Below are positions 4,617 through 49,277 of a stretch of 52,658 nt of DNA, in pieces; positions within the stretch are counted from its first letter, which is position 1, and each line of letters starts with the position of its first letter. The position numbers were made by a program, and so were the translations under genes. The stretch is taken from assembly GCA_011170325.1 (NCBI GenBank), contig DUEX01000015.1:1-52658 (forward strand). Direction: 5' to 3'. The DNA is from Dehalococcoidia bacterium. GTDB lineage: Bacteria; Chloroflexota; Dehalococcoidia; GIF9; UBA5629. The notes under the pieces were generated by a model. The model was not told the origin of the DNA. It saw only the letters and a list, made by a program, of their open reading frames with translations, and searched no databases.

Positions 4617-4706
4617 GAAATTGCGTCCAAACTACCTGATTAACTCTCCTATACACTTTTGTCGATTTTGTGCTATGATAATGAGCAATATATCTCGGAG
4701 GCATTG

Positions 4707-6494
4707 GTGAAGGTAAAGGCTTCAGTTACAGTATTAGCGCTATTATCGCTGGCTATGTGCCTGATGCCAAGGCCAATCGATGCCTCCAGCCTAACGCTAA
4801 CCCCATCACAAGGAATCATCGGCACAGAGGTCACCATACTTTCTAGCTGCAGCTATGGCACTGGCGATTACCACCTTTATTGGGGGGAAGCTGACAAGCT
4901 TCTCAGCCAGGGTGTAATCGATGAGACCTGTATTTCTATAACTTTCATCGTCCCTGAGGCCGCCAGAGGCAAACACAAAGTCACCCTGAAGATAGGCGAC
5001 GATTCCTTCAATGGTGAATTTACGGTTATGCCATCTATCAGCCTCAGCACCAACCAAGGTACTGTAGACTCAAATCTGACGGTTACCGGGAACGGCTTCG
5101 ATAGTAATGAGTCAAACATTGAGATAAAATATGATAATAGTCCAGTCGAAACTGGGATTGAAGCCAGCAGCAAAGGAAGCTGGCAAAGCACCTTCAAAGT
5201 CCCGGCCAGCACTCGGGGCGAGCATATTATTGATGCTGAAGGCACCACCCCAGCCAGTGAAGTCGACGACCAGACCTTCGCCATAGTTCCTCAAATCAAT
5301 ATTAGCCCAACCTCAGGATATGTGGGTACTATGGTAAGTATAGCCGGCACTGGCTTCGGCAGTGGGGAAACTAACATCACAGTAACCTATGATGGTCTAG
5401 CAGCAAAAACTGGAATTGCTTCTAATGCCATAGGCTCATGGCAATCTAGTTTCACCGTCCCTACGTCCACCAAAGGCAGCCATAAGGTAGATGCCCACGG
5501 AGCGGTTACTCCCGAAGCTGATGTCGCTGAAGCTACCTTTATCGTGTCTCCGGGGATAAAACTGGAACTGGCCTCCGGTCACCTTGGCGATAACATTTAC
5601 ATCGGCGGCAGTCTTTGGGTCAGCGGCATTGGCTTTAAAGAGAATGAGGCTGGAATTCAAGTCACTTTTGACGGCACTTTGGTTGCCAGCGGCATCAGCG
5701 CCGATGCCAAAGGCTCCTGGGTAACTCAATTCGAAGTGCCTCTAAGCACCAAGGGTGAGCACACTGTTGACGCTTCAGGAGATACCACTAAAGCTGGCGA
5801 TGTCGCTGACTCTACCTTAGTCATCTCACCAAGAATAGAAATCAATCCCACCTCTGGAGCCATAGGTGATGACATAGTCATCAACGGCAATGGTTTTGGA
5901 GGAAGCCAAGCCATAACCATCAGCTATGGTGGAAGCCAGATAGCCACCGGCTCAACTACCAATGCCAAAGGTAGTTTCACAGCCAGCTTCAAAACCCCAA
6001 AAAGCCAAGCTGGTGACCATACTATAACAGTCACCGATGCTACTGCGGCTGTAGCCTCAGCCAGCTTCACCATGGAGTCGACACCACCGTCAACGCCCCA
6101 ACTTGTATCCCCTGAAGCTGGCAGCAAGGTCGGTTTTATCGGCAAAACCATTGTTACTTTCGATTGGTCTGATATTGATGACCCCAGTGGCATCTGTTAC
6201 CTGCTAGAAATAAGTCAAGGCACTGATTTCTCCGGCACTATGGTTCGTAAGGAAGCCTTAGCCCAATCCCAGTACACCTTGGCTGATGACGAGGCTCTAG
6301 CCAGAGGAGAATATTACTGGAGGGTGAAAGCTATAGATGGGGCTGGAAATCAGAGTGACTGGGCAACTGGGCAGCTACTTAAGGTTGGTATCATAGAGTT
6401 CTGGCTGTTAACAGTTATTATCCTAGTCGGCATTGGTATAATCACCATCATCTGGCGAATTATATCTATCAGTCGGCGAGGCGGCTGGAAATAA
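4707..6494 (+). CDS. Cell-surface (S-layer-like) protein: signal peptide, five tandem Ig-like (IPT/TIG-like) repeats, a distal beta domain and a C-terminal TM anchor.
   Basis: The ORF is open from 4659, but GTG 4707 is preceded by GGAGG (4696..4700) and begins with the signal peptide VKVKASVTVLALLSLAMCL. The repeat consensus is G.GF......I.V.YDG......G.....GSW...F.VP.S..G.H.VDA.G. The C-terminus is IIEFWLLTVIILVGIGIITIIWRIISISRRGGWK. Confidence 0.8.
   Translation: MKVKASVTVLALLSLAMCLMPRPIDASSLTLTPSQGIIGTEVTILSSCSYGTGDYHLYWGEADKLLSQGVIDETCISITFIVPEAARGKHKVTLKIGDDSFNGEFTVMPSISLSTNQGTVDSNLTVTGNGFDSNESNIEIKYDNSPVETGIEASSKGSWQSTFKVPASTRGEHIIDAEGTTPASEVDDQTFAIVPQINISPTSGYVGTMVSIAGTGFGSGETNITVTYDGLAAKTGIASNAIGSWQSSFTVPTSTKGSHKVDAHGAVTPEADVAEATFIVSPGIKLELASGHLGDNIYIGGSLWVSGIGFKENEAGIQVTFDGTLVASGISADAKGSWVTQFEVPLSTKGEHTVDASGDTTKAGDVADSTLVISPRIEINPTSGAIGDDIVINGNGFGGSQAITISYGGSQIATGSTTNAKGSFTASFKTPKSQAGDHTITVTDATAAVASASFTMESTPPSTPQLVSPEAGSKVGFIGKTIVTFDWSDIDDPSGICYLLEISQGTDFSGTMVRKEALAQSQYTLADDEALARGEYYWRVKAIDGAGNQSDWATGQLLKVGIIEFWLLTVIILVGIGIITIIWRIISISRRGGWK
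4791..6077 (+). repeat. Five tandem ~85-90 aa protein-level repeats inside the surface-protein gene.
   Basis: The repeats are visible in translation (TVTGNGFDSNESNIEIKYDN..., SIAGTGFGSGETNITVTYDG..., VSGIGFKENEAGIQVTFDG..., VINGNGFGGSQAITISYGG...). The DNA copies have diverged. Confidence 0.6.
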
Positions 6495-6504
6495 AGAAGC
6501 AGAC

Positions 6505-6532
6505 TTGACAAACAGAAAAGCGTAGCTATAAT
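6505..6532 (+). promoter_or_regulatory. Near-consensus sigma70-type promoter for the CetZ-like gene.
   Basis: TTGACA (6505..6510), a 16-nt spacer, then TATAAT (6527..6532). A GAGGG Shine-Dalgarno sequence lies just before ATG 6571. Confidence 0.5.
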
Positions 6533-6570
6533 ATTGAGTTAATTTATAAGACAGAAAGCGAGGGAATGAT

Positions 6571-7752
6571 ATGAAATTAATGATTATCGGGTTAGGACAA
6601 TGCGGTTCTCGGATTGCTGATGAGCTTGTTCGCCTAAATCGGCAGGCAGAGTCACATCGGCACACCAGTATAATTACTGGAGCCTTTGCCGTGAATACTG
6701 ACCAGGCTGACCTCACTGGCCTATCTTATATTGGTTCCGACTACATGCATCGTATACTTATCGGGGGGCGTAAGACCTGGGGACATGGTGTGGGCAAGGT
6801 AAACGAGATGGGTGCTGAACTGGCCAGAGAAGATGGTGATAAAGTGATCGATGCTATCAGGACTGCACCCGATTTCTACCACACCCATGCCTTCCTGCTC
6901 ATCGCCGGCAGTGCTGGCGGTACTGGGTCTGGCGCTATATCGATAATTTCCCAGATGCTCAAGGAGCGTTACATAGGCAAGCCAGTTTACGCCCTTGTCG
7001 TCCTCCCCTTTGAACACGAAGAGGTGGCTGAACTGAGAAGCGTCTACAACACGGCTACCTGTCTCAAGTCCATCCATCCGATAGCTGATGGTGTCTTCTT
7101 AGCTGATAATCAGCGCTATGTTAGAAAAGACGCCAGCATGGCAATGAACCTGCAGAAAATAAACAGACAAATCATCGAGCCCTTCTACGACCTGATGTGC
7201 GCCGGAGAGGTGACCAAATACAAGTATGTTGGTGCCAAGACGCTGGATGCTGGCGACATCATTCAATCCATCGATGGCTGGACGGCCCTCGGTGTTGGCA
7301 GAGCTGCAATATCGCGTGGTTTCCGCTCCCCCTGGGAACTGGCCAAGACCAGTTTTCGGGAAAAGAGTGGGGAAACTCTAAGAGCCATGCAAGCTATGGA
7401 CGCTGCTGTAAGTGAGCTTTCTATTGGCGTTAGTCCTGAAGATGCTGGTAGAGCTTTATATCTCGTATCGGCCCCGGCTAGGGAAATGAGTATGGATATT
7501 GCCAAAGGTCTGGGCGATTACCTCCGAGAGATGGCAGAAAACGCCGTAATCAGAGCCGGTGACTTCCCCGGAGACGGAGGTACTGTTGATGTCACCATAA
7601 TGTTTTCTCAGTTAGCCTTTGTCCAGAAGATAATGGACTACTATGACCGGGCTTCGGCCTTTGCCGTCAGCCAGAAGGAGCGGATAAAGGAAACTACCGG
7701 CCGACTCCGTGACATGGAGGATGCAGCTAAGGGGTTGCCCAGCTTAATCTAA
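6571..7752 (+). CDS. Tubulin/FtsZ-superfamily GTPase, CetZ-like (paralog 1, canonical motifs).
   Basis: 393 aa. T1 loop IGLGQCGSR. GHGVGKVNEMGAELA. Tubulin signature AGGTGSG at 6913..6933. LKERYIGKPVYALVVLPFE. FLADNQ. AGEV. T7-like LDAGDIIQSI. C-terminal IRAGDFPG. The overall order matches my recollection of haloarchaeal CetZ1. Confidence 0.85.
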   Translation: MKLMIIGLGQCGSRIADELVRLNRQAESHRHTSIITGAFAVNTDQADLTGLSYIGSDYMHRILIGGRKTWGHGVGKVNEMGAELAREDGDKVIDAIRTAPDFYHTHAFLLIAGSAGGTGSGAISIISQMLKERYIGKPVYALVVLPFEHEEVAELRSVYNTATCLKSIHPIADGVFLADNQRYVRKDASMAMNLQKINRQIIEPFYDLMCAGEVTKYKYVGAKTLDAGDIIQSIDGWTALGVGRAAISRGFRSPWELAKTSFREKSGETLRAMQAMDAAVSELSIGVSPEDAGRALYLVSAPAREMSMDIAKGLGDYLREMAENAVIRAGDFPGDGGTVDVTIMFSQLAFVQKIMDYYDRASAFAVSQKERIKETTGRLRDMEDAAKGLPSLI

Positions 7753-7788: not shown

Positions 7789-9150
7789 TCACTGCCCTTT
7801 AGCCTTTCGTGGCACATATTTGGCAGCAGCCTGAACGACCAGAGCTAGGCTCGTCAAGTAATCATCGTGTCCATCACTGGGGTCAACGAAGAAGTTAAGT
7901 GTCTGGTTGGGACGATAGACGCTCTTAGCTTTCTCTAGCTCAAACATAAGTTCCCTGTAATCCTGAGAGCCATCCTGTTTATACAGTTTTAGCCTGCCTG
8001 AATTGATGGCAGCCAGTAGGTCAAAACCTGCTTCTGACTTAGAGCTCTGAGTGAACTTAAACGGGATAACTTTGCTGCCCAGAGCCTGTCTCAAAAACGA
8101 GGTCACTGATTCACCAACGGCAGTAGCGTCAACTACAATCCGACTGCAACCCCAGACGTTCTTCAGGATATCCACCAACTGGGGGCAAAGGTCCGAGTGC
8201 CTCCTTCCCACCCAGACGTAGTGTTCAACGATGTTGATATGCGGGTCTTTAGTTATTGAGTCGCCTGCTGGGCTTATGACCTCAGCAATGGTGATGACGG
8301 TAGCGTCCCTACCCGGTCTAGCTAAGATTTGCTCCTCGACCACCTCGGACTCGCCAGCCAAGTCGATGCCGGCGGCATAGACTTTCGATGCTTGATGACG
8401 CCGATGAGCTCGTGCATGCTCACCAAGCATCTGAGCTATCTGTTGGCTGGATAGAAAGCCACCGCCGCCACGGATAGGTAGCAAGGCGTATTGAGTTCTG
8501 AAAAGTGGGTGGCTCTCGCCCAGCCTGTCCCGCTCAGCTTCAACAAAAGCACAATATTCAGGATTATGCTTGGCCACTTCCTGCCAATCATATCTGAAAT
8601 GCCTTTTTATACCATCCTTCCTCTCTAGTTCAAGGTTGGTCTGCTTTATCTCCTCAAGCAGGGTGTTATCGTCCCAGGTAGTCCCGTAGTGGACAGTAGT
8701 CACGTTGAAGGCTGAGCCCATAGGTCTGAACTCTTTAGTGTATTTTTCTTTGGCTACATCTTGGGACTCGTCGATCTCCAAGAGGATGTCGGCGGTATGC
8801 CCGACCACCGAAGATGACTCCTCAGCCGATAGAAAAACCTGACGGGCCGCCCCCAGCTTGACGATATAGCCCATCTCAGTTGACCAGATGCCGGCGAAAC
8901 CAAAATCGTCAAGTCTTTCCTTCAGCCTCATAATCGATATCACCGTCTGAGGTTTGAAGGTTGGAGAGCACTTAACAGCACTGCCACCCTTGGCCATGAA
9001 CATTGTTAACAGTAGTACCTCAAGCTGCGCTGATAGCTCATTCTTGCCTCCCTGGCGGGCTATCTCTACAGAAAAAGTCAAGCCTTTCTTTTCTTGAATG
9101 CTCTCTAGGATGGCTTTGGCGACTTCTTGCTGGTACGGTCTTAGTTTCAT
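7789..9150 (-). CDS. Phage terminase large subunit-like protein (ATPase plus RNase H-like nuclease).
   Basis: 453 aa. Walker A-like ARQGGKNE, Walker B LLEIDESQD, and nuclease acidic motifs AAGIDLAG, VVDATAVG and GHDDYLTS. Confidence 0.75.
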   Translation of the reverse strand: MKLRPYQQEVAKAILESIQEKKGLTFSVEIARQGGKNELSAQLEVLLLTMFMAKGGSAVKCSPTFKPQTVISIMRLKERLDDFGFAGIWSTEMGYIVKLGAARQVFLSAEESSSVVGHTADILLEIDESQDVAKEKYTKEFRPMGSAFNVTTVHYGTTWDDNTLLEEIKQTNLELERKDGIKRHFRYDWQEVAKHNPEYCAFVEAERDRLGESHPLFRTQYALLPIRGGGGFLSSQQIAQMLGEHARAHRRHQASKVYAAGIDLAGESEVVEEQILARPGRDATVITIAEVISPAGDSITKDPHINIVEHYVWVGRRHSDLCPQLVDILKNVWGCSRIVVDATAVGESVTSFLRQALGSKVIPFKFTQSSKSEAGFDLLAAINSGRLKLYKQDGSQDYRELMFELEKAKSVYRPNQTLNFFVDPSDGHDDYLTSLALVVQAAAKYVPRKAKGQ

Positions 9151-9485
9151 CTAATTAGCGACTTGACTCCGAGGGGTATGGCTATCTCAGTCAACACCTT
9201 AGTGATAGCTTCCTTAAGAGATTTCTTCTGTTCTTTACTGATGTTGTAGCGGGTCTTGACAAGCCGGGCAATGGTGTTGGCAGCCTCGAGGTGGAGGTCA
9301 AGCCTGTCTGGCTCTTTGCCAATGAGTTCGCAGAGCTTGACTCTTAAGATGGCGATCTCCTCATCAATGCCTTCTATGCCCCAGGCCTGCTCAAGCTGGA
9401 GCTTCTCAGCCTCGTCAAGAACCTGACTGTAGAAGCCGTGCTTCCTTGCGTTCTGATTGCCTTTTGGTGCGCCTCTTTTTGCCAT
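9147..9485 (-). CDS. Putative terminase small subunit-like protein.
   Basis: ATG 9485 gives MAKRGAPKGNQNARKHGFYS..., an N-terminal GNxNAxKHG motif common in phage small-terminase-like proteins. Its stop overlaps the terL ATG (ATGA at 9147..9150). The ORF is open from TTG 9515. Confidence 0.5.
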   Translation of the reverse strand: MAKRGAPKGNQNARKHGFYSQVLDEAEKLQLEQAWGIEGIDEEIAILRVKLCELIGKEPDRLDLHLEAANTIARLVKTRYNISKEQKKSLKEAITKVLTEIAIPLGVKSLIR

Positions 9486-9663
9486 TCTGCTTTGCCTTGA
9501 TGAGCCCAAAGACAAGGATGTGGGCAGCTAGGTCATACCTCTCCTCTTCCAAAGCTATTTTCAACAACTTCACCATAATCAAATATAATTCTAGCACTAA
9601 TGTTCTATTAAGACAAGCCGATATTGTCGTTCCAGCCTTGAGTTAGGAAGTCGTAGCGCCACC

Positions 9664-11578: not shown

Positions 11579-12223
11579 TCAAACCTGTCTGAACAAGGTG
11601 CCAAAGAAAGCGACTATTTTCTCCGCCATGGCTACCTCATATCCCCACCAGAAATGGTCAGCCCCGGAGACAAGCTCAAATTGCTTCGGTTCAGCCGCCT
11701 CTCGATTAATTAGCTCCGCTTTCTGAAGCGAAACCACAAAATCCCCAGCCCCACAGATTATGAGCTTAGGCTTAGCACAGTCCTTTAGCTGGGATACTTG
11801 TGATAGTTCAAGCGGCGGAGAAACAAGTGCCACCGCCTTAACCCGGTCATCACTACAGGCAACCGCCGAAGCCACAGTGGCGCCAAAAGAATAGCCTAAT
11901 AATCCCACTTTATCTACACCCACTTCAGGCTGGGAAATTAGCCAACTTATAGCTGCCGCCACATCCTCTTGCTCATCAACACCGCCGCCAAAACTGCCTC
12001 CGCTGCCTCCTACTCCACGGAAGTTAAACATGAAGGCAATTATAGACCTGTTAACCAGAGTCGAACCCACCGCTAGTATAACATTGTTATCCATTGAGCC
12101 ACCATAAAGAGGATGAGGATGGCACAGGACTACCGCTGGAAAAACTCCGTCGCCCTCAGGGAAATAGCAAGCCCCTTCCAGAGTAAGATTGCCACAAGGG
12201 AAGGATATGTCGCTCCGTCTCAG
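11579..12223 (-). CDS. Alpha/beta hydrolase (HPHPxxGG...GxSxG type) with a probable non-canonical CTG start.
   Basis: The listed ORF starts at ATG 12094, but the conserved N-terminus LTLEGACYFPEGDGVFPAVVLCHPHPLYGGSMDNNV continues in frame upstream. The nucleophile elbow is GYSFG. Between the TAA at 12239..12241 and 12094 there is no in-frame ATG, GTG or TTG. CTG 12223 overlaps the rarA stop. Confidence 0.8.
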   Translation of the reverse strand: MRRSDISFPCGNLTLEGACYFPEGDGVFPAVVLCHPHPLYGGSMDNNVILAVGSTLVNRSIIAFMFNFRGVGGSGGSFGGGVDEQEDVAAAISWLISQPEVGVDKVGLLGYSFGATVASAVACSDDRVKAVALVSPPLELSQVSQLKDCAKPKLIICGAGDFVVSLQKAELINREAAEPKQFELVSGADHFWWGYEVAMAEKIVAFFGTLFRQV

Positions 12224-13590
12224 CCTTTCTTCTCCCTTTTATTCCCCCACCAGGCTTTAAGTCTAGTATTTACTTCCTTTTCATAGCCCTGTTCACTGGG
12301 GAAATAATAACGCTTCTCCCGGAGCGAATTCGGCAGGTTCTGTTGCTCTACAAAATGTCCGGGGTAGTTGTGAGCATATTTGTAGCCTTTCCCATATTCC
12401 AGCTCACGCATCAATCGGGTAACTGGATTGCGCAGGTGAAGTGGTACCGGCTCATTTCGACTTCGCTCAACATCTTGCTGCACCCGAGAGTAGGCGTCAT
12501 ATAAGGAATTGCTTTTCGGAGCCGTAGCCAGATAGGTCACCGCCTCAGCCAGAGCCAGATTGCCCTCAGGCATACCAACAAAATGTGCTGCTTGTTGAGC
12601 TGCTACAGCCACCATCAACGCTTGAGGATCAGCCATACCTACATCTTCAGAAGCAAAGCGCACCAGACGTCGGGCAATATAAAGAGGGTCCTCTCCAGCC
12701 TCAAGCATTCGCCCTAGCCAATATAAAGCTGCGTCGGGGGCTGAACCACGCAGCGACTTATGAAGCGCTGAGATAAAGTCATAATGCTGGTCACCGCTTT
12801 TATCATAAAGCAAAGCCCGTTGCTGTAGCGCTTCCTCAATACTTGTCAGGCTGAGCCGACGATACCCATCAGCCTCAGGCGAACTAGCCAAAGTTGCCAT
12901 CTCCAAGGCATTGAGTGCTACCCGAGCATCACCATTAGACATAACAACCAAATGCCTTAGAGCCTCTCCGGCTAGCTCCACCTTCAATTTCCCTATCCCC
13001 CTCCCCCTATCTTCGATAGCTCGTTCAACGATAGAACGAATCTCTATATCAGTTAACGAATTCAAAGTAAATACTCGGCACCGCGAGAGCAAAGGAGAGA
13101 TAACCTCAAAGGAAGGATTCTCTGTGGTAGCGCCGATGAGAATTACCACGCCATTTTCCACAAAGGGCAATATCGCATCCTGTTGAGCTTTATTAAATCG
13201 ATGGATCTCATCAATAAACAGGATAGTTCGTTGCCCAGATAGCTTGAGCCTATGCTTAGCTTCATCAACGATGCGACGCAGGTCAGCCACACCGGCACTA
13301 ACTGCACTCAGTGGACTAAAATGTGACTTGGTGATGCTAGCAATAACATAAGCCAGAGTTGTTTTGCCACTACCAGGCGGGCCCCAAAAAATCAGCGACG
13401 GCAACTGGTCTGCCTCGATACATTTTCTGAGCACCCGCCCCTCGCCTACCAGATGCTCCTGCCCCATAAACTCAGCAAAATTTAGCGGCCGTATTCTGGC
13501 AGCTAAAGGCATATCACCGGGCAGCTCAGAGTCTACCCTAGATATTGCTTTGCCCTTCGATTCCAGCTGATTTAAATCGAAAAGAGTCAT
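12220..13590 (-). CDS. rarA: Replication-associated recombination protein A (AAA+ ATPase MgsA/RarA)
   Basis: 456 aa. Walker A FWGPPGSGKTTLA, Walker B LFIDEIHRFNK and a C-terminal MgsA_C region (HYDFISALHKSLRGS). Confidence 0.95.
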   Translation of the reverse strand: MTLFDLNQLESKGKAISRVDSELPGDMPLAARIRPLNFAEFMGQEHLVGEGRVLRKCIEADQLPSLIFWGPPGSGKTTLAYVIASITKSHFSPLSAVSAGVADLRRIVDEAKHRLKLSGQRTILFIDEIHRFNKAQQDAILPFVENGVVILIGATTENPSFEVISPLLSRCRVFTLNSLTDIEIRSIVERAIEDRGRGIGKLKVELAGEALRHLVVMSNGDARVALNALEMATLASSPEADGYRRLSLTSIEEALQQRALLYDKSGDQHYDFISALHKSLRGSAPDAALYWLGRMLEAGEDPLYIARRLVRFASEDVGMADPQALMVAVAAQQAAHFVGMPEGNLALAEAVTYLATAPKSNSLYDAYSRVQQDVERSRNEPVPLHLRNPVTRLMRELEYGKGYKYAHNYPGHFVEQQNLPNSLREKRYYFPSEQGYEKEVNTRLKAWWGNKREKKG

Positions 13591-14690
13591 GTTACCTCTC
13601 TCTTTAACGTTTGAGCTACCCTAACCGCTTTATCATAATAATTCTTAACCTCTTCCACATAGGTCAGTGCTGATGCGACCACGGTAACTTGGGCAAAATC
13701 TCTAGCTCCGTAGAAATCACCACCTCTTATTTCAGCATTATGTGCTAACTCCCGCAGGCGATTTCCCAAAGCTTTGGTCATATCAACATTGGCTTCCTTA
13801 GCTGGGACTGAGAGAAGATATAGGGCTTTGCCAGCATCCTCCAATTTGCAATCAATCGAGAACCGGCCCAAAGCTGCACTCATTGCCTCCATGGCTTTAA
13901 GTGTTTCCGAGCCCTTCTCCTGAAAGCCCTGCATCTTTCTCCAAGGAAATCTTGACACCGAAAATTGTGTCTTCCCAACGCCTATCGCTGTCCAGCTTGC
14001 TAAAGTTTGTACCATGTCACCAACGCCTAGTGCCCACACCCCAACATATCCTGAGCCAACCACTTCGCTAGCACAAAGAAGGTCATAGAATGGAAGGGCT
14101 ATCTCTTTATTCAAACTGCCCATATTATCAATTGATGTCGCATTTCCTCCCACTCTGAACCTCTCATTATCCACCAAGAACACAGCGTCAGCTACCTTAT
14201 GAATAGACTTGAGGCAGATAGCCGTATTATAAACACATTGCGGCTCGGTTGCCTCAGGCTCAAAGGGGAGAATGATGAGTGCATAGACCGGTTTGCCTAC
14301 ATAACGCTCCTTAAGTTGTTGAGCCATTACCGGAACTCCGCCAGAACCAAGGCTTCCAGCAGCACCAGCGATAAATAAGAAAGCGTCTGTCTCAAAAAAC
14401 TCACCCGGTCTCATAGCTGCTATTACCCGGTCACCTTCCTCACTCATAAGTGCAGCGCCAGCTTCAGTAGACTTGCCGTCACCTCCAAGGGAACCACGAA
14501 TAAAGATAGGCTGTAGCCACTCAGGCCCAGACTTAGTCAATACTGCTAAACTAGCCTGGTCATTATTAACCGCATAGGCACGGGTAACTATGCTGACATG
14601 TCGTTCAACTTTTGCTCTTTTATTTAACCGAGCAAATTCACTAGCCAGCCTGCAGCCACAATCACCAAGACCAATAACTAGCAACTTCAT
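13587..14690 (-). CDS. Tubulin/FtsZ-superfamily protein, CetZ-like (paralog 2, degenerate nucleotide-binding motifs).
   Basis: 367 aa, collinear with the 6571..7752 product: MKLLVIGLGDCGCR, LKERYVGKPVYALIILPFE, VYNTAICLKSIH, FLVDNERF, PFYDLLCASEV, GSETLKAMEAMSAA, EDAGKALYLLSVPA, IRGGDF. The signature is AGSLGSG (14340..14360) instead of AGGTGSG. Confidence 0.8.
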   Translation of the reverse strand: MKLLVIGLGDCGCRLASEFARLNKRAKVERHVSIVTRAYAVNNDQASLAVLTKSGPEWLQPIFIRGSLGGDGKSTEAGAALMSEEGDRVIAAMRPGEFFETDAFLFIAGAAGSLGSGGVPVMAQQLKERYVGKPVYALIILPFEPEATEPQCVYNTAICLKSIHKVADAVFLVDNERFRVGGNATSIDNMGSLNKEIALPFYDLLCASEVVGSGYVGVWALGVGDMVQTLASWTAIGVGKTQFSVSRFPWRKMQGFQEKGSETLKAMEAMSAALGRFSIDCKLEDAGKALYLLSVPAKEANVDMTKALGNRLRELAHNAEIRGGDFYGARDFAQVTVVASALTYVEEVKNYYDKAVRVAQTLKREVT

Positions 14691-14693
14691 ATG

Positions 14694-15209
14694 CTACTTA
14701 TATCTCCTCACCTGAAAACGGTATAGCTTAATCGGTTCGTCGCCTGATATGCCAGCTTTAGCTCGGCAGATATCAATCTGCTCGTCTACAGTATCCACGC
14801 CTTCAAGGCCAGGCAGCAAAAGTCCTCGCCTAAACCCACACTCTACAATCACGCCATACTTCTTAGGGTCAAGCCGGTCAATGCTATCCACCGGCTCAGG
14901 CTTGGTGAGTATATCTATGCTATATTCCAAATTATCTAACTCAGAAGCCGCAACCGGCGTAAAGCGAGGGTCCTCAGTAGCCGAACTAATAGCATTGGCA
15001 ACGATTTCCTCGGCTACATTCGCCCTAGTTGGCTCAAAGGTGCCAATACAGCCCCTTAGTTCACCATGTTTCTTAATGGACACAAAGACACCAGCTCTTT
15101 CCTTCATTTCAGCAGTAAGCTCCTCTGCTTTGAGCACCCTGCCCTCGCCAATATAACTTTCCACCGCCTCTTTAGCTAACTTTACTATTGGGTGAAGCTC
15201 CTTTTCCAT
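14694..15209 (-). CDS. AMMECR1 domain protein (AmmeMemoRadiSam system protein A)
   Basis: 171 aa with the [19 protein letters not shown] motif typical of AMMECR1. Confidence 0.9.
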
Positions 15210-15210
15210 G

Positions 15211-16029
15211 TCACTGCCTCCTTCCCCCCTTTATTATTATACCAGCGTAGCCGACTACGCTGGTATAATCACCCGATGTGTCACCACTTGTCTGATATCT
15301 AACTAGTTCTGCCTCTCTCCCTCCTAACTCCTTAGAGGCAGAAATAAGGCTAACCGCTGGTGCATAGCCACACATCGATATATCCAACTCCTCAACTCGC
15401 TTCAAGAGCTCATCCTCATTTAAATCCAGTATGGCTTCGATAGCCTGAGCATCTTTCCTCTGAGCAGTTTCCTGCGGTTCATAGTGGGTCATGTCACTGC
15501 TGGCTATGATTACAGTCCCCCGACCTAATCCCTTAATAGCCCTGGCTATTCCCTTGCCGATTTCTTTATAGGCAGCACCGGCCGAGTGGGAGAGAACGAT
15601 AGGCACTATCTCGATGTCTGGCTTGAAATACTGTAAAAATGGAACCTGAACCTCAATGGAGTGCTCATATTGATGTGCCATATAGTCTTCTTCTAAGTAG
15701 CTAGATATAGCTAAAATCTGCTTTCCAAGTTCCGAGTCAATTTCTACCTCACCCAAAGGTGTTTTCCATCTGCCTTTCGTCATGATACTAAAAGGTTTTC
15801 CTCTCCCAGTGTGATTAGGACCTAAGATGACAAAGGTGTCCCTAAATTTGATTCTAGATATAACAGCCCCAGCTACTGGCCCTGAGTAGATATATCCAGC
15901 ATGAGGCGAAACCAGTCCGACTACCTCGACTTTCTCTGCCTTCTCATCAACCAATTCTCTAATCTGTGCCCTAAGCTGGTCGGGTAAGCCCGGGTAAAAT
16001 TGGCCAGCGACAACTGGATTCCTAATCAT
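15211..16029 (-). CDS. MEMO1-family protein (AmmeMemoRadiSam system protein B)
   Basis: 272 aa. N-terminus [14 protein letters not shown], with [10 protein letters not shown] and the DMTHY His/Asp metal site pattern. Confidence 0.9.
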
Positions 16030-16064
16030 AATACCTCCCTTAGCAGAGCTAAAACCCCGCGACG

Positions 16065-17090
16065 TTAACCAACCGTCTTAATATTAAGTTCAGCTCCGCA
16101 AAACTTACACTTTGAACCGCCAATGCCCACCACTTGAGCATCGTAGCCAAATCTTCTAATGACCACTTTGCCACAAGAATAACAAACAGTATTCTCTCCG
16201 TCATGACCAGGGATATTGCCCAAATAGACAAAGCGCAACCCTGCTCTTTTGCCAATATCATAAGCCTTCTCCAGGCTAGCTATTGGGGTCGGCGGCAAGT
16301 GAGTCAGGTAATGATGAGGATAAAACCGGGTCACATGCCAAGGAGTCAGCTCACCCAGTTCATCCCGAATCCAAATAGCAATACCCTCCAGCTGCTCCTC
16401 ATCATCATTCATCGTCGGAATCACATTGGTCACCACCTCGACATGCATCCCCCATTTCACTTGAGCCCGTTTAGCCACCTCGAGAATTCCTCGCCACCGG
16501 GAAATTTTGGCTAAGTCGCGATATAAAGCATCAGAAAAACCTTTGATATCAACCCGCCAAGCATCGAGATAAGGCCCGATAGTATCCAAGGCCTCCGATG
16601 TAAGATAGCCATTAGTAACATAAACACTGTAGAGCCCATCTTTCTTAGCCAGCTTCGCTGAATCCAGGGTATATTCAAACCAGATACTTGGCTCATTATA
16701 AGTCCAGGCAATGCCACCACAATTATGCTGCTTGGTTAATTTCACAGCTTCCTGAGGCGAAATTCTTCGTGAACCCCTCACCATTTCGGCTGGCTCCTCA
16801 ACACAAGAGATCTCCCAATTCTGGCAATGCTTACAATGAAAATTGCACCCCCAAGTACCTAAAGAGAAAACCAAGCTCCCTGGAAAGAAGTGGAACAGGG
16901 GTTTCTTCTCGATAGGGTCAACCGCTACTGACGAGGCCTCAGCATAGTTAAGGATACGAAGAATGCCATCATTATTTCGACGCACTCGACAAACACCAAA
17001 TTTGCCCGGATTAATAACACAACGCCACTGGCAAACATTGCAACGTACTCTAGACCCAGGAAGCTTGTCGTAAAGTATCGCCTCAGACAT
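16065..17090 (-). CDS. AmmeMemoRadiSam system radical SAM enzyme
   Basis: 341 aa. N-terminal Cys cluster CNVCQWRC...CRVR, radical SAM CNFHCKHCQNW, and a C-terminal zinc-ribbon-like CYSCG...CKFCG. Confidence 0.9.
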   Translation of the reverse strand: MSEAILYDKLPGSRVRCNVCQWRCVINPGKFGVCRVRRNNDGILRILNYAEASSVAVDPIEKKPLFHFFPGSLVFSLGTWGCNFHCKHCQNWEISCVEEPAEMVRGSRRISPQEAVKLTKQHNCGGIAWTYNEPSIWFEYTLDSAKLAKKDGLYSVYVTNGYLTSEALDTIGPYLDAWRVDIKGFSDALYRDLAKISRWRGILEVAKRAQVKWGMHVEVVTNVIPTMNDDEEQLEGIAIWIRDELGELTPWHVTRFYPHHYLTHLPPTPIASLEKAYDIGKRAGLRFVYLGNIPGHDGENTVCYSCGKVVIRRFGYDAQVVGIGGSKCKFCGAELNIKTVG

Positions 17091-18755: not shown

Positions 18756-18962
18756 ATGAAGGATAAAATTCATCCTGAATATTATACTGATGCCAAAGTA
18801 ATCTGCTCCTGTGGCAATACTTTCACTACTGGCTCCACCAAGAAGGTGCTCAAAGTTGAACTATGCAGCAAATGCCACCCATTCTTCACTGGCGAACAGA
18901 AGATAGTGGACACCGCCGGCAGAGTAGAACGCTTTAAACGCCGCTATAAACTGACCGATTAA
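18756..18962 (+). CDS. rpmE: 50S ribosomal protein L31 (Zn-ribbon type)
   Basis: [14 protein letters not shown]...[10 protein letters not shown]. Confidence 0.95.
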
Positions 18963-25825: not shown

Positions 25826-26920
25826 ATGATTGTAACTTTAAGCGTAATCAAGGCTGATGTCGGTGGTTATGTTGGTCATTCCAGTTCGCATCCGGAACTG
25901 CTAAACAAAGCTGAAGAAGGTATGGCACGGGCTAAGAAGGCAGGGCTGCTCATTGATTACCACGTTACCAGATGCGGTGATGACCTCCAACTAATAATGA
26001 CTCACCAGCAAGGAGAAGATAACGACCAAATTCACAAACTGGCCTGGGATATCTTCATCGACTGTACCAAGATAGCTAAAAAGCTAAAGCTGCACGGTGC
26101 TGGTCAAGACCTGCTGGCCGATGCCTTCTCCGGCAATGTCAAAGGTATGGGCCCTGGAGTCGCTGAAATGCGATTCGATGAGCGCGAAGCCGAAACCATC
26201 GTCATCTTTATGGCAGACAAGACTGCCTCCGGTGCCTGGAACCTGCCTCTATATAAGATCTTTGCCGACCCCTTTAACACCATCGGCCTAGTCATCGCTT
26301 CCAACATGCACGGCGGCTTCTCCTTTGAGGTTCACGATGTCAAAGAGAGTAAAAAGATAATTTTCAATGCTCCTGAGGAAATCTACGATATGCTGGTTTT
26401 CCTGGGCGCACCCGGCCGCTATGCTGTCAAAGCTGTCTACCACCGGCAAAGTGGTGAGATAGCCGCTGTTTCTTCCACTCAGCGCCTGTCATTGATGGCT
26501 GGTAGGTATGTGGGTAAAGATGACCCGGTGTGTATTGTCCGGTCTCAGGGACAGTTCCCGGCTGTGGGCGAGGTTCTTGAACCTTTTGCCTCCCCCAACA
26601 TAGTGGAAGGCTGGATGAGAGGCTCCCACCATGGTCCGCTGATGCCAGTAGCCGTCAGCGATAGCAACCCCTCCCGCTTTGATGGGCCACCTAGAGTGAT
26701 TGCTGCCGGCTTTCAACTCTCCGGAGGCAAGCTAATCGGCCCCCGTGATATGTTCGATGACCCAGCTTTCAACAACGCCCGGCAACAAGCAAACGATATT
26801 GCTGACATGCTGCGTCGTCTCGGCCCCTTCGAGCCGCACCGTCTGCCTCTAGAGGAGATGGAATATACCACCATGCCCCAGGTAATGGAAAAGCTTGAGG
26901 GAAGATTCGAAGGTATTTAA
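25826..26920 (+). CDS. fbp: Bifunctional fructose-1,6-bisphosphate aldolase/phosphatase (class V, archaeal type).
   Basis: 364 aa. TLSVIKADVGGYVGHSSSHPEL is the hallmark N-terminus of this family. Confidence 0.93.
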   Translation: MIVTLSVIKADVGGYVGHSSSHPELLNKAEEGMARAKKAGLLIDYHVTRCGDDLQLIMTHQQGEDNDQIHKLAWDIFIDCTKIAKKLKLHGAGQDLLADAFSGNVKGMGPGVAEMRFDEREAETIVIFMADKTASGAWNLPLYKIFADPFNTIGLVIASNMHGGFSFEVHDVKESKKIIFNAPEEIYDMLVFLGAPGRYAVKAVYHRQSGEIAAVSSTQRLSLMAGRYVGKDDPVCIVRSQGQFPAVGEVLEPFASPNIVEGWMRGSHHGPLMPVAVSDSNPSRFDGPPRVIAAGFQLSGGKLIGPRDMFDDPAFNNARQQANDIADMLRRLGPFEPHRLPLEEMEYTTMPQVMEKLEGRFEGI

Positions 26921-37185: not shown

Positions 37186-37368
37186 CTACCCACCCCTAGC
37201 GCTTTTGCGTCGCTTTACCGCTTCCTTCCGCTTCCGCTTTACGCTAGGCTTCTCATAAGATCCGCGGCGACGGACTTCGCTAAGTATGCCTTCTTGCTGT
37301 ACCTTCCTGCTAAACCGCCGCAGCAAACTCTCAAAATTCTCCCCTTCACCAAGCCTCACTTCAAGCAC
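37186..37368 (-). CDS. rpsU: 30S ribosomal protein S21
   Basis: 60 aa. GTG start after AAGGAG. NFESLLRRFSRKVQQEGILSEVRRR..YEKPS.KRK. Confidence 0.93.
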   Translation of the reverse strand: MLEVRLGEGENFESLLRRFSRKVQQEGILSEVRRRGSYEKPSVKRKRKEAVKRRKSARGG

Positions 37369-43724: not shown

Positions 43725-44423
43725 TTATGCTTGCTTCACCATCGTGTACCCTATGCCAGGCCTGGTCAGGATATATCTGGGGTTCTTGGCATCATCGCTT
43801 AACTTCCGCCTGAGCCTAGCTATATTGACCTGAAGGAGGTGGGTCTCGCCAAGGTACTCCTCGCCCCATACCTTCTCCAGTATCTGGTCAGGGATGACCA
43901 CCCGGTCGCTATTGCGCGCCATATAGGATAACAGTCTGTACTCTGTGGCGGTCAGATTTACCTTCTGGCTGTCCAGCATGACACTGCGGTGGGCAAAGTC
44001 AATTATAAGGTCATGGGAATGAAACGCCGGCTCAGGACTCTCATCCCAGAGTACAGTGCGGCGTAGCACCGCCCTGACCCTGGCGGCTAACTCCTTGGTA
44101 GAAAATGGCTTGGTCACATAATCATCAGCACCGGCATCCAACCCTTGTACCTTCTCTACCTCATCACCCTTGGCGGTAACCATAATTATCGGTACCTGTG
44201 AGAACTCGCGGATGCGTTGACACGCAGTATATCCATCCATGCCAGGCATCTTAATATCCAGCAACACCAAGTCTGGGGACTCCTCAGCGAATACATCAAG
44301 AGCGGACTCACCGTTACTAGCAGTAACCACTCGGTATCCCTCCAGCTCAAGGACATGCTGCATCATGCGCAAAATGTGAACATCATCATCAACCACCAGC
44401 ACAGACACTTTCCTAGACGGCAT
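43725..44423 (-). CDS. OmpR-family response regulator (REC plus winged helix).
   Basis: ATG 44423 after GAGGTGG. VLVVDDD, LVLLDIKMPGMDG, ADDYVTKPF, and C-terminal LTATEYRLL...RPGIGY. Confidence 0.92.
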   Translation of the reverse strand: MPSRKVSVLVVDDDVHILRMMQHVLELEGYRVVTASNGESALDVFAEESPDLVLLDIKMPGMDGYTACQRIREFSQVPIIMVTAKGDEVEKVQGLDAGADDYVTKPFSTKELAARVRAVLRRTVLWDESPEPAFHSHDLIIDFAHRSVMLDSQKVNLTATEYRLLSYMARNSDRVVIPDQILEKVWGEEYLGETHLLQVNIARLRRKLSDDAKNPRYILTRPGIGYTMVKQA

Positions 44424-44631
44424 ACCAGCACCACCTCTTTCGGTAGAGGACACGGTCAACGGCTTTCTTGAGGTCTGCAGCGATAGGCATCTTGATCAGA
44501 TAGTCGGCGATGCCCGTGCTGAAGGCCCTGTCCCAGTGTGATACTGCAACCGGGGCGGGCGTGGCCGCCCACAAGCTGGCAGATGATTCGCTATCGGCTG
44601 TAAGTGTTCCCCTGTTATTAAACTGCCTCAC
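44413..44631 (-). pseudogene. Possible relic of a receiver domain (C-terminal half only).
   Basis: The ORF translation contains PVAVSHWDRAFSTGIADYLIKMPIAADLKKAVDRVL, resembling beta4-alpha4-beta5-alpha5 of REC (PVimlTa....a...GAdDYl.KPf...L...v..vL). The phospho-acceptor half is missing. It overlaps the next gene's start. Confidence 0.35.
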
Positions 44632-44643
44632 TTCTATATACCT

Positions 44644-45687
44644 CTACTTACGCAACCCGGAAACTTCAGGCTTCTGCCTTAGTACCTCAGCCACGGGCAT
44701 TTTGAGAAAGGCGGCAACTACCACAGGGTCAAACTGGGTGCCAGTGCAGCGCTTTATCTCCTCGCAAGCAGCTTCAGTCCCCATTGCCTCCCGATACGGC
44801 CGCTCAGATGTCATAGCGTCATAGGCATCAGCCACCGCCATAATTCTGGCACCCAGTGGTATCTGCTCACCCCCTAGCCCATCAGGATAGCCTCTACCGT
44901 CGTAGCGCTCGTGGTGATGCCTGACCATCCCCAGAATCTCTTTATCCTCCACGATTGGTGCCAGGATATGCTCTCCTAGCTCAGGATGAGATTTTATATG
45001 CCCATACTCATCATCGGTAAGGCTGCCTGGCTTGTTTAGAACGGACTCCCTTATTCCTATCTTGCCGATATCATGGATTAATCCGGCAAGTCTTATCTTC
45101 TCAACCTTGCCTCGGGGCATTTTCAGCTCCCGGGCAATAGCAACGGACATCTCAGTTACCCTCTGCGAATGGCCGCTGGTGTACCTGTCTTTGGCTTCCA
45201 AGGCATAGGCCAATGCAGTTATGGCATTGAGGAAAGATTTACGAATTCTCTTAGCTTGCTCCTCAACCTTCTGCTCCAGGTGCTGCTGGTAATCTCTATT
45301 CTCAAGCTCCAGCCTCCTTTTCTCCAGAGCCCTGTCTACGCTCAAGACGACCTCAGCCAGGTTAAATGGCTTGGTTACATAATCGTAGGCGCCTTCTTTC
45401 ATACATTGGATGGCAGTGCTGGTATCGGTTATGGCAGTAGCCATGACCACCGCCGTATCGGGGTACCTAGCTCTTATTTCGGGAAGAACCTCCGTTCCCG
45501 ATTTCCCCGGCATCTTAATATCCAGAAGGATTAGGGCAGATGGAGCAGTCTCCATTCTATCCAGCGCTTGGTCACCGTCACCAGCTTCCTGGCACTGGTA
45601 GCCCTCCTTTGCCAGCCTCCGATGCAGGAGTTCCCTGACCCCTGGCTCATCGTCGACAATCAGTATTCTTCCTTGGTTTTGGGTCAT
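44644..45687 (-). CDS. Response regulator with HD-GYP output domain (putative c-di-GMP phosphodiesterase).
   Basis: ATG 45687 (ATGA overlap with the upstream gene). ILIVDDEP, LILLDIKMPGKSG, HSQRV, GLIHDIGK, HHERYDGRGYPDGL. Confidence 0.92.
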   Translation of the reverse strand: MTQNQGRILIVDDEPGVRELLHRRLAKEGYQCQEAGDGDQALDRMETAPSALILLDIKMPGKSGTEVLPEIRARYPDTAVVMATAITDTSTAIQCMKEGAYDYVTKPFNLAEVVLSVDRALEKRRLELENRDYQQHLEQKVEEQAKRIRKSFLNAITALAYALEAKDRYTSGHSQRVTEMSVAIARELKMPRGKVEKIRLAGLIHDIGKIGIRESVLNKPGSLTDDEYGHIKSHPELGEHILAPIVEDKEILGMVRHHHERYDGRGYPDGLGGEQIPLGARIMAVADAYDAMTSERPYREAMGTEAACEEIKRCTGTQFDPVVVAAFLKMPVAEVLRQKPEVSGLRK

Positions 45688-46085
45688 TTTTCTGCCTGCT
45701 GCAAAGCCTCTTTGACCACAGTTTTCAGCCAATCTATATCAAATGGTTTTGACAGAAATGGTCTGCCAGATGCCTCCAAAAGGCTCTCGGTATCTCCGCT
45801 CATCACATCTCCAGTAATGAATATCACCCTGTTTGCCATCTCTGGATGCTTCTGTTTAAGCCATTGATGGAACTCACTACCATCTACCAGCGGCATCCTG
45901 ACATCTAACAGGCAAAGGTCATAGTCCTTCCCCTTTCTCCACAGTCTGTCCTGAGCATCCTTCCCATCAACAGCGATATCCACCTCAAATCCTTCGCCGG
46001 TAAGGACTCTCACACAGACGTTGCAAATCCCTGGTTCATCATCGACTACCAGGATTCTCTTTGAGGTGCTAGCAGTAGTTTTCAT
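45684..46085 (-). CDS. Single-domain CheY-like response regulator
   Basis: 133 aa. ILVVDDEP, LCLLDVRMPLVDG, LSKPF. Confidence 0.9.
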   Translation of the reverse strand: MKTTASTSKRILVVDDEPGICNVCVRVLTGEGFEVDIAVDGKDAQDRLWRKGKDYDLCLLDVRMPLVDGSEFHQWLKQKHPEMANRVIFITGDVMSGDTESLLEASGRPFLSKPFDIDWLKTVVKEALQQAEK

Positions 46086-48817: not shown

Positions 48818-48824
48818 TTTGCTC

Positions 48825-49277
48825 CTATTCCCCTCGCGGCGGCAGTTTCACGATAGCCAGCCAGAAATCTTCAACTGCCTTTATCACCTCCATGAACCGG
48901 TCGAGGTCAACCGGCTTGGTGATGTAGCAGTTGGCGTGAAGGTCGTAGGTCCTGATGATGTCCTCATCGACCTTAGAGATGGTCAGGATGACCACCGGGA
49001 TACGTCTCAGGTTGACATCACTCTTGATTTCCGCCAGCACTTCCCGCCCATCCTTCCTCGGCAAGTTCAAATCAAGCAGGATGAGGTCTGGCCGAACGGC
49101 ACGGGTATGCTTGCCTTGCTGCCTGAGAAAGTCTAAGGCCTCTACGCCGTCCTCAACCACATGCAGTTCGTTGAGCACCTTGGCATCTTTCAAGGCCTCC
49201 TGTGTCAGCCGCGCATCACCAGGGTTGTCCTCTACCAAGAGAATCTCGATAGGCCTACTGGTCTCCTTATTGGTCAT
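48825..49277 (-). CDS. Single-domain response regulator (Rcp1-like).
   Basis: 150 aa. [36 protein letters not shown] overlap with the upstream kinase gene. Confidence 0.9.

Follow-up and report, generated by a model that had tools for sequence, protein, structure and literature searches.

We examined a 52,658-nt stretch of DNA (positions 1 to 52,658 of contig DUEX01000015.1, assembly GCA_011170325.1, hereafter the window) assigned to a Dehalococcoidia bacterium of the Chloroflexota, and found that it carries two genes for proteins of the tubulin superfamily. The first, which we call P1, encodes a CetZ-like GTPase, and the second, P2, encodes a paralog in which the nucleotide pocket is degenerate. 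P1 stands directly behind the gene of a surface protein with TIG repeats and is followed by a convergent pair of terminase-like genes, and P2 lies within an operon-like string of five genes; the positions of these genes and of their motifs are collected in Table 1. CetZ is the third major lineage of the tubulin superfamily, and the laboratories that study it call it archaea-specific.

Table 1. Genes, protein motifs and expression signals of the P1 and P2 loci, in window coordinates
Feature	Position	Strand	Remarks
P1, CetZ-like tubulin-superfamily GTPase	6571..7752	+	ATG start, 393 aa; Pfam Tubulin and CetZ_C
Putative sigma-70-type promoter of P1, TTGACA-16-TATAAT	6505..6532	+	12/12 consensus match; ends 38 nt 5′ of the ATG
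Shine-Dalgarno region of P1, AAAGCGAGGG	6555..6564	+	7 nt before the P1 ATG; from sequence
T1 stretch of P1, MKLMIIGLGQCGSR	P1 residues 1-14	+	Seen in translation
T1 loop of P1, GLGQCGSR, residues 7-14	6589..6612	+	GQCG core (residues 9-12) 100% conserved in 118 P1 orthologs
T3 loop of P1, GHGVGK, residues 71-76	6781..6798	+	100% conserved across the P1 orthogroup
T4 tubulin signature of P1, AGGTGSG, residues 115-121	6913..6933	+	GGTGSG 99-100% conserved in the P1 orthogroup
T7 loop of P1, DAGD, residues 226-229	7246..7257	+	Alignment to 4b46; 100% conserved in the P1 orthogroup
M-loop region of P1, residues 247-262, hydrophobic F-x-F-P-W tip	7309..7356	+	Low model confidence (AlphaFold2)
C-terminal motif of P1, LPSLI, residues 389-393	7735..7749	+	L-x-[ST]-L-hydrophobic terminus in 108/118 P1 orthologs
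P2, CetZ-like paralog with degenerate nucleotide pocket	13587..14690	-	367 aa, 49% identical to P1
Degenerate T4 of P2, AGSLGSG, residues 111-117	14340..14360	-	Alignment with P1
AmmeMemoRadiSam trio (radical SAM, Memo, AMMECR1)	14694..17090	-	NCBIfam TIGR04335, TIGR04336, TIGR04337; 5′ of P2
MgsA/RarA AAA+ ATPase	12220..13590	-	Pfam MgsA_C; start codon overlaps the P2 stop (ATGA)
TIG/Big_13 Ig-repeat single-pass surface protein	4659..6494	+	611 aa; Pfam TIG, Big_13
Terminase-large-like	7789..9150	-	Pfam Terminase_6C, phrog_5909
Terminase-small-like	9147..9515	-	phrog_1889
rpmE (L31)	18756..18962		Recognised by eye
rpsU (S21)	37186..37368	-	Recognised by eye

A first-pass annotation of the window had reported the P1 reading frame with a set of tubulin motifs, and all of them were confirmed in the translation: the T1 stretch, the T3 stretch GHGVGKVNEMGAELA beginning at residue 71, the T4 signature, FLADNQ and AGEV, the T7 region LDAGDIIQSI and, near the C-terminus, IRAGDFPG. 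The T4 sequence AGGTGSG matches what we take to be the general tubulin signature, [SAG]GGTG[SA]G. When P1 was aligned to Haloferax volcanii CetZ1 (Protein Data Bank (PDB) entry 4b46), D229 of the T7 loop fell on the CetZ1 residue E218, and the M-loop fell on the LLSRL region of the CetZ1 M-loop. Together with the GQCG core of T1, the T3, T4 and T7 motifs are 99–100% conserved in the P1 orthologs, and the nucleotide-contact loops T1, T3 and T4 and the catalytic acidic residue of T7 are thus intact and invariant. The FPW of the M-loop is present in the consensus of both the P1 and the P2 orthogroup. The L-x-[ST]-L-hydrophobic terminus of P1 was seen in 0 of 120 P2 orthologs, and the terminal motif of the bacterial clade as a whole (see below) reads [DEG]-[IL]-P-x-L-[LIF].

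Family models, sequence and profile searches of the PDB and a fold search with a predicted structure all placed P1 with CetZ, as the first-pass annotation had proposed, and not with FtsZ, TubZ or BtubA/B. P1 matched Pfam Tubulin (PF00091) at E=1.2e-29 (104.4 bits, cutoff 33) and CetZ_C (PF21011) at E=1e-13 (51.6 bits, cutoff 21.6), the latter match running from residue 189 to 361 and over profile positions 3–178 of 180; the same Pfam scan gave no FtsZ_C match at E<=1 and no Tubulin_C match. On the FtsZ equivalog model TIGR00065, which has a cutoff of 295.2 bits, P1 scored 55.8 and P2 scored 21.5 bits, and both fail. The best three phmmer matches of P1 in the PDB were all CetZ proteins (4b46 CetZ1 at 1.2e-37, spanning residues 1–359; 4b45 CetZ2 at 3e-22; 3zid at 6e-13), and FtsZ and tubulins began only at ∼5e-8. 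With a profile of the family the CetZ entries reached 2e-47, 7e-33 and 3e-17; the other matches, which cover the GTPase domain only, were BtubB (1.6e-8), FtsZ (3.6e-8), gamma-tubulin (6e-7), Asgard AtubA (3e-6) and TubZ/RepX (6.5e-8 to 4.5e-6). An AlphaFold2 model of P1 (predicted local distance difference test (pLDDT) 84.2, predicted template modelling score (pTM) 0.84) was best superposed by Foldseek on CetZ1 (4b46; template modelling (TM) score 0.92, root-mean-square deviation 2.5 Å) and on CetZ2 (TM 0.91), with FtsZs at ∼0.80–0.83, so that P1 is predicted to have the CetZ two-domain fold. No relative of P1 was matched in 50,697 phage records, no PHROG family matched it, and in a plasmid collection only the CetZ paralogs of haloarchaeal megaplasmids did, at ∼30% identity, with no bacterial plasmid among the matches. 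Hence the two placements that would have spoken against a CetZ-like protein, an ordinary bacterial FtsZ or a plasmid- or phage-borne TubZ, are excluded by these results. By domain, sequence and fold P1 is CetZ-like; its host is not archaeal.

The comparison with the H. volcanii proteins shows both kinship and distance. P1 shares with CetZ1 and CetZ2 the Tubulin plus CetZ_C architecture and intact T1–T7 motifs, and its acidic T7 residue aligns with that of CetZ1. It resembles CetZ1 further in the C-terminus (LPSLI in P1, LESLF in CetZ1) and in the hydrophobic M-loop tip, a resemblance of pattern that may reflect equivalence. However, P1 is only ∼29–30% identical to CetZ1 and its T1 core reads GQCG where CetZ1 has GQAG; unlike archaeal CetZ, moreover, it belongs to a bacterial host, to a separate clade and to a different gene neighbourhood. 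With bacterial FtsZ it has in common the superfamily fold (TM ∼0.8) and a linker that leads to a short, hydrophobic peptide at the C-terminus, but it fails the equivalog model, lacks FtsZ_C and stands outside the dcw/ftsA context.

To place P1 and P2 among their relatives, we computed a neighbour-joining tree from 80 full-length sequences, with E. coli FtsZ as its root and single outgroup. P1 and P2 fell among 32 sequences that form a clade at 88% bootstrap support, with H. volcanii CetZ1 and CetZ2 outside it; support was 100% for the P2 orthogroup and 74% for the P1 orthogroup, and only 9–36% at deeper nodes. The named members of this clade are Dehalococcoidia, and the closest archaeal representatives that have a name carry the label Nitrososphaerales. 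With a distance method and a single outgroup behind the tree, we limit the claim to a distinct bacterial clade, which appears to lie beside, not inside, archaeal CetZ, and we therefore call the proteins CetZ-like. A HMMER search of 1.84 billion cluster representatives showed the family to be compact, with 778 representatives within E<=1e-3 and 61 of them within E<=1e-30. All clade members in the cluster look-ups and in a profile search of the subclades other than P1 and P2 came from metagenome-assembled genomes (MAGs), with no cultured organism among them.

The canonical CetZ clade has been bounded at the Thermococcales CetZ (Brown & Duggin 2023), and in a maximum-likelihood analysis Chloroflexota sequences were called ‘CetZ-like’ and lay outside the supported canonical CetZ node (Santana-Molina et al. 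2023; PMC9871819). That study gives one sentence to the Chloroflexota-Dehalococcoidia CetZ-like sequences, as ‘sparse paraphyletic groups’. They are likewise bacterial Chloroflexota proteins of the tubulin family, their C-termini match the CetZ_C hidden Markov model at ∼1e-10, and they are almost certainly the same group as the P1/P2 clade; the division into a canonical and a pocket-degenerate orthogroup goes beyond that study. Reviews of CetZ otherwise describe the family as archaea-specific, and we found no later literature that treats bacterial CetZ-like proteins and no functional work on them. The novelty that the first-pass annotation implied thus holds in part: the existence of such proteins in Dehalococcoidia was already listed in 2023, but their abundance, their conservation at the level of core genes, the promoter, the surface-protein neighbour and the paralog with its degenerate pocket seem to be new to the literature.

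The bacterial setting of P1 was borne out by the contig itself and by its relatives. Rho, bL21, bL27, the beta-clamp DnaN and PyrG of the window score above their NCBIfam cutoffs, and the genes rpmE and rpsU were recognised as well. A scan of GTDB, with one genome for each species, found 293 stretches encoding relatives. Of the best 79 loci, all but one (78) are MAGs of Dehalococcoidia, Dehalococcoidales or Chloroflexota, including a 2.46-Mb chromosome, and the recurrent gene order is pyrG, tal, rho, the TIG protein gene, P1 and then the convergent terminase-large-like and terminase-small-like genes. An archaeal or chimeric contig, in which the bacterial context would be an artefact of assembly, is exceedingly improbable, and nothing was found in its favour: the markers Rho, bL21, bL27 and DnaN are on the same contig as P1, the order from pyrG to P1 recurs in dozens of independent MAGs, on contigs of megabase scale and on the chromosome just mentioned, and the GC content and codon usage of both P1 and P2 lie inside the range of the window. 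The sole exception among the 79 loci is an 11-kb contig binned as Thiorhodovibrio, which carries a P1 ortholog of 72% identity (locus L072, 4582..5760). In GC content (53.5%) this contig agrees with the Dehalococcoidia loci, but the genes that flank the ortholog are non-syntenic, and either mis-binning or transfer may explain the label.

P1 is as conserved as the housekeeping genes beside it. Across the 79 loci the median identity to the window protein was 82.7% for P1, 80.9% for Rho and 82.2% for PyrG in the same loci, compared with 50% for the upstream TIG protein and 60.8% for P2, values that put P1 under purifying selection at housekeeping level. A bacterial CetZ-like clade as conserved as Rho breaks the archaea-specific rule, and its host class is abundant in the environment and includes relatives of the organohalide-respiring Dehalococcoides. 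The first-pass annotation had also suggested strong independent expression of P1, and at the level of the sequence this is supported: beside the full consensus match in the window, a TTGACA -35 element with a good -10 element (score >=10/12) stands upstream of 65 of 78 P1 orthologs, and a strong Shine-Dalgarno sequence, AAAGCGAGG or AAAGTGAGG, is found upstream of most of them. P1 is thus predicted to be driven by a strong, conserved promoter of its own.

A large protein database gave 5,809 matches to P1 at E<=1e-5, whose source names include ‘cell division protein FtsZ’, ‘tubulin/FtsZ family protein’ and, from the Joint Genome Institute (JGI), ‘tubulin-like protein CetZ’. Many homologs are labelled ‘cell division protein FtsZ’ or ‘cell division GTPase FtsZ’ by both NCBI and JGI. 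Because the CetZ-like proteins fail the FtsZ equivalog by a wide margin, these FtsZ labels look like systematic misannotation, by which a survey of Chloroflexota division genes can be led astray.

In 54 of 65 loci the gene directly 5′ of P1 on the same strand encodes the TIG protein, and the median gap between the two genes is 109 nt. This protein is a type I membrane protein with one C-terminal transmembrane helix and a short cytoplasmic tail that is conserved as W-R-I-x-x-I-S-[KR]-[KR]-G-G-W, and it could be a cell-surface or surface-layer (S-layer)-associated protein with a cytoplasmic partner. Its adjacency to P1 is kept at 57–62% P1 identity even where pyrG, tal and rho are gone, and it is from this adjacency that we infer a functional link between the two.

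On the other side of P1, the terminase-like pair lies 3′ and convergent in 45 of 55 loci and is directly adjacent in 36. The pair is 64–82% identical among these Dehalococcoidia loci and keeps the same chromosomal position in the 45 with no other phage genes nearby. This pattern points to a domesticated terminase that has been conserved throughout the class, for which no relative with a solved structure was found by sequence. This neighbour raises the alternative that P1 is a tubulin of a mobile element or of DNA segregation, of the TubZ/PhuZ type and perhaps tied to the terminase-like genes, and one distant subgroup of the clade does lie among resolvase and insertion sequence (IS) genes. TubZ/RepX and phage PhuZ are likewise bacterial proteins of the tubulin superfamily, but they are plasmid- or phage-borne segregation motors. 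P1 has no counterpart in the phage records or the PHROG families, its plasmid matches are confined to haloarchaeal CetZ paralogs, and the family profile reaches TubZ/RepX only weakly; its composition is native, no other phage genes surround it, and it occupies a fixed chromosomal site between housekeeping genes in dozens of species. We therefore regard a segregation tubulin as very improbable. The distant subgroup itself consists of 418-aa CetZ-like proteins (P0265/P0396; loci L089 and L090, 8001..9257) whose genes have resolvase, IS605 TnpB and IS66 genes around them and a conserved 327-aa gene downstream, in DNA of 61% GC; a mobile element may carry this subgroup, in a host of another kind.

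The paralog P2 retains the CetZ fold in prediction and has lost much of the nucleotide-binding face. It matches Pfam Tubulin and CetZ_C (31.2 bits for CetZ_C), and its AlphaFold2 model (pLDDT 86.1, pTM 0.88) has CetZ2 and CetZ1 as the top folds. In the 120 P2 orthologs T4 reads G-S-[LV]-G-S-G, with Gly replaced by Ser in 75% and Thr by Leu or Val in 83%; the Gln of T1 is Asp in 90%; T3 has a 3-residue deletion in 99% and is variable in the rest, with a conservation of 0.37 against 0.70 for the whole protein; and there are changes in T5 and T6 too. By contrast, T7/H8 keeps the consensus LDAGDIVQTL, and the aspartate aligned to CetZ1 E218 is present in 98%. The tail of P2 is short, variable and often Lys-rich and does not carry the terminal motif of P1. 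The same protein database held 1,227 matches to P2, several-fold fewer than to P1.

P2 belongs to an operon-like string on the minus strand (12220..17090) of radical SAM, Memo, AMMECR1, P2 and MgsA/RarA genes, in which codons abut or overlap. It is flanked by AMMECR1 in 16 of 19 loci and by MgsA in 17 of 19. In four loci (L080, L082, L083 and L085), however, P1 and the MgsA/AMMECR1 string are kept and the string has no P2. Because the string also exists without P2, P2 has been either inserted into it or lost from it, and for the same reason we read the AmmeMemoRadiSam trio as genomic context, with a functional tie to P2 improbable.

The first-pass annotation had suggested that P1 and P2 may form a two-component filament. 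The degenerate pocket of P2, its missing C-terminal motif, its faster evolution and its absence from some lineages call for a revision of this idea, and a symmetric filament of the two looks unlikely. In its stronger form, P1 and P2 would make an obligate two-subunit polymer like alpha/beta-tubulin or BtubA/B, in which P1 holds the hydrolysed, exchangeable nucleotide and P2 supplies the T7 face only. Here too there would be two paralogous subunits, one of which has a non-catalysed or non-functional nucleotide site and supplies the T7 face. The two genes are ∼6 kb apart both in the window and in the distant relative L006 and within 10 kb (<=10 kb) in 17 of 39 loci, the decay of P2 is asymmetric, with T3 eroded and the T7 aspartate kept, and P2 is still confidently CetZ-folded in the model. 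However, P2 is missing from the string in four loci that have P1, which makes it dispensable in some lineages; it evolves much faster than P1, has far fewer database matches and has no C-terminal motif; and the sequence relation to alpha/beta-tubulin and BtubA/B is weak (1e-8, in the GTPase domain only). On balance we hold an obligate polymer to be quite unlikely. As the nucleotide face of P2 has decayed and the T7 face has been kept, we favour an accessory, capping or regulatory role over that of an equal co-polymer: most likely P2 would be an accessory subunit that does not hydrolyse nucleotide and that caps P1, regulates it or pairs with it. With its degenerate pocket, P2 is a natural experiment in how tubulin-like proteins evolve non-catalytic partner subunits.

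What P1 does may be approached from CetZ1 and from the envelope of its hosts. CetZ1 forms polymers in a GTP-dependent manner, the E218A mutation hyperstabilises the polymers and blocks GTPase-dependent turnover and rod formation, and mutation of the M-loop tip (LLSRL) or of the C-terminal LESLF, which is required for rods, abolishes function (de Silva 2024). Dehalococcoidales and SAR202 are reported to be without dcw genes and peptidoglycan and to have an S-layer-like wall ‘resembling Archaea’, and they retain mraZ-mraW-ftsA-ftsZ with canonical division proteins FtsZ and FtsA (PMC10608941; PMC11994032). An S-layer-type envelope without peptidoglycan is common to H. volcanii and, according to this published order-level work, to the host group of P1. 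We lean, with modest confidence, towards a membrane-proximal, GTP-driven P1 filament that shapes or organises the envelope of these peptidoglycan-less bacteria, with P2 as an accessory. Because the T1, T3, T4 and T7 motifs are intact, P1 would be competent to polymerise, head to tail and in a GTP-dependent manner as CetZ1 does. The hydrophobic M-loop tip and the terminal LPSLI parallel the two features of CetZ1 that are needed for rod formation, and P1 may therefore act through them at the inner face of the membrane. It would there organise cell shape or envelope structures in Dehalococcoidia separately from FtsZ-based division, and the foremost candidate for a link to the envelope is the TIG surface protein, whose cytoplasmic tail is conserved. 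P1 is thus a concrete candidate for shape maintenance in bacteria whose studied orders are reportedly without peptidoglycan; cells of D. mccartyi are disc-shaped.

Several points weigh against such an envelope filament. The function proposed for P1 would be carried over from CetZ1 at ∼29–30% identity and from gene context, the functions of CetZ proteins vary even among archaea, and both the canonical ftsZ and the loss of peptidoglycan are taken for this host from literature at the level of the order. The linkage to the TIG gene is confined to the P1 orthogroup: distant members of the clade lie beside a nuo operon or IS elements, and the archaeal relatives labelled Nitrososphaerales have unrelated neighbours, so that there is no shared module. 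Since gene order is highly conserved in these genomes, the adjacency of the TIG gene and P1 may also be inherited synteny. Moreover, the terminus of P1 resembles the conserved C-terminal peptide of FtsZ and fits a role in division equally well.

The last point leads to the alternative that P1 is a second division tubulin, recruited after the loss of peptidoglycan to aid FtsZ in constricting the membrane. There is a parallel in the FtsZ1/FtsZ2 pair of archaea without a pseudomurein wall, a wall-less state could plausibly need extra constriction machinery, and the terminal [DEG]-[IL]-P-x-L-[LIF] resembles the FtsZ peptide that docks FtsA or SepF. However, the closest kin of P1 is CetZ, whose characterised members serve shape and motility, and P1 has its own promoter, adjoins the gene of a surface protein and is linked to ftsA, ftsZ or mraZ in 0 of the 79 loci. 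When the window and 1.24 Mb of related loci were searched by tblastn with E. coli FtsZ at 1e-3, no canonical FtsZ turned up, and P1 itself was likewise unmatched by this query. We consider a division role unlikely on the whole, and it keeps an appreciable share of our judgement because of the terminal motif and its resemblance to the FtsZ peptide. In D. mccartyi BTF08 an ‘FtsZ/Tubulin GTPase’, btf_0551, is expressed and distinct from FtsZ (btf_0595), and both were less abundant in co-cultures, where the discs change to barrel-like cells (PMC8163811); if btf_0551 belongs to the P1/P2 clade, its fall together with FtsZ would speak for a division role.

A broader form of the envelope filament would make the CetZ cytoskeleton a replacement for MreB and the wall in Dehalococcoidia that lost peptidoglycan and took on an S-layer envelope, anchored by the TIG protein. 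The CetZ system would have come from archaea or from a common stock, and in some lineages a tubulin-like split of labour would have evolved independently, with P1 bearing the hydrolysable nucleotide and P2 nucleotide-dead and supplying only its T7 face. We rate this joint reading as quite unlikely. The P1 clade also informs the question of gene flow between archaea and the Chloroflexota, which carry STT3/AglB-type enzymes and reportedly an S-layer wall as well.

Two tandem genes for STT3/AglB-type oligosaccharyltransferases, enzymes of archaeal- and eukaryotic-style N-glycosylation, lie 5′ of pyrG in 10 of 29 loci (for example L001, 1..4054), and the window begins 3′ of their position. A glycosylation neighbourhood was considered and dropped as too weak, since STT3/AglB is upstream in no more than these 10 loci and only 6 of 46 loci have a glycosyltransferase cluster downstream. 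Elsewhere in the window, the plus strand encodes a bifunctional fructose-1,6-bisphosphate aldolase/phosphatase (25826..26920; NF041126, 587 bits), an enzyme of gluconeogenesis that is characteristic of archaea and of deep-branching bacteria, and the minus strand carries a series of response-regulator and sensor-kinase-like open reading frames with receiver-domain-type N-termini (43725..51499).

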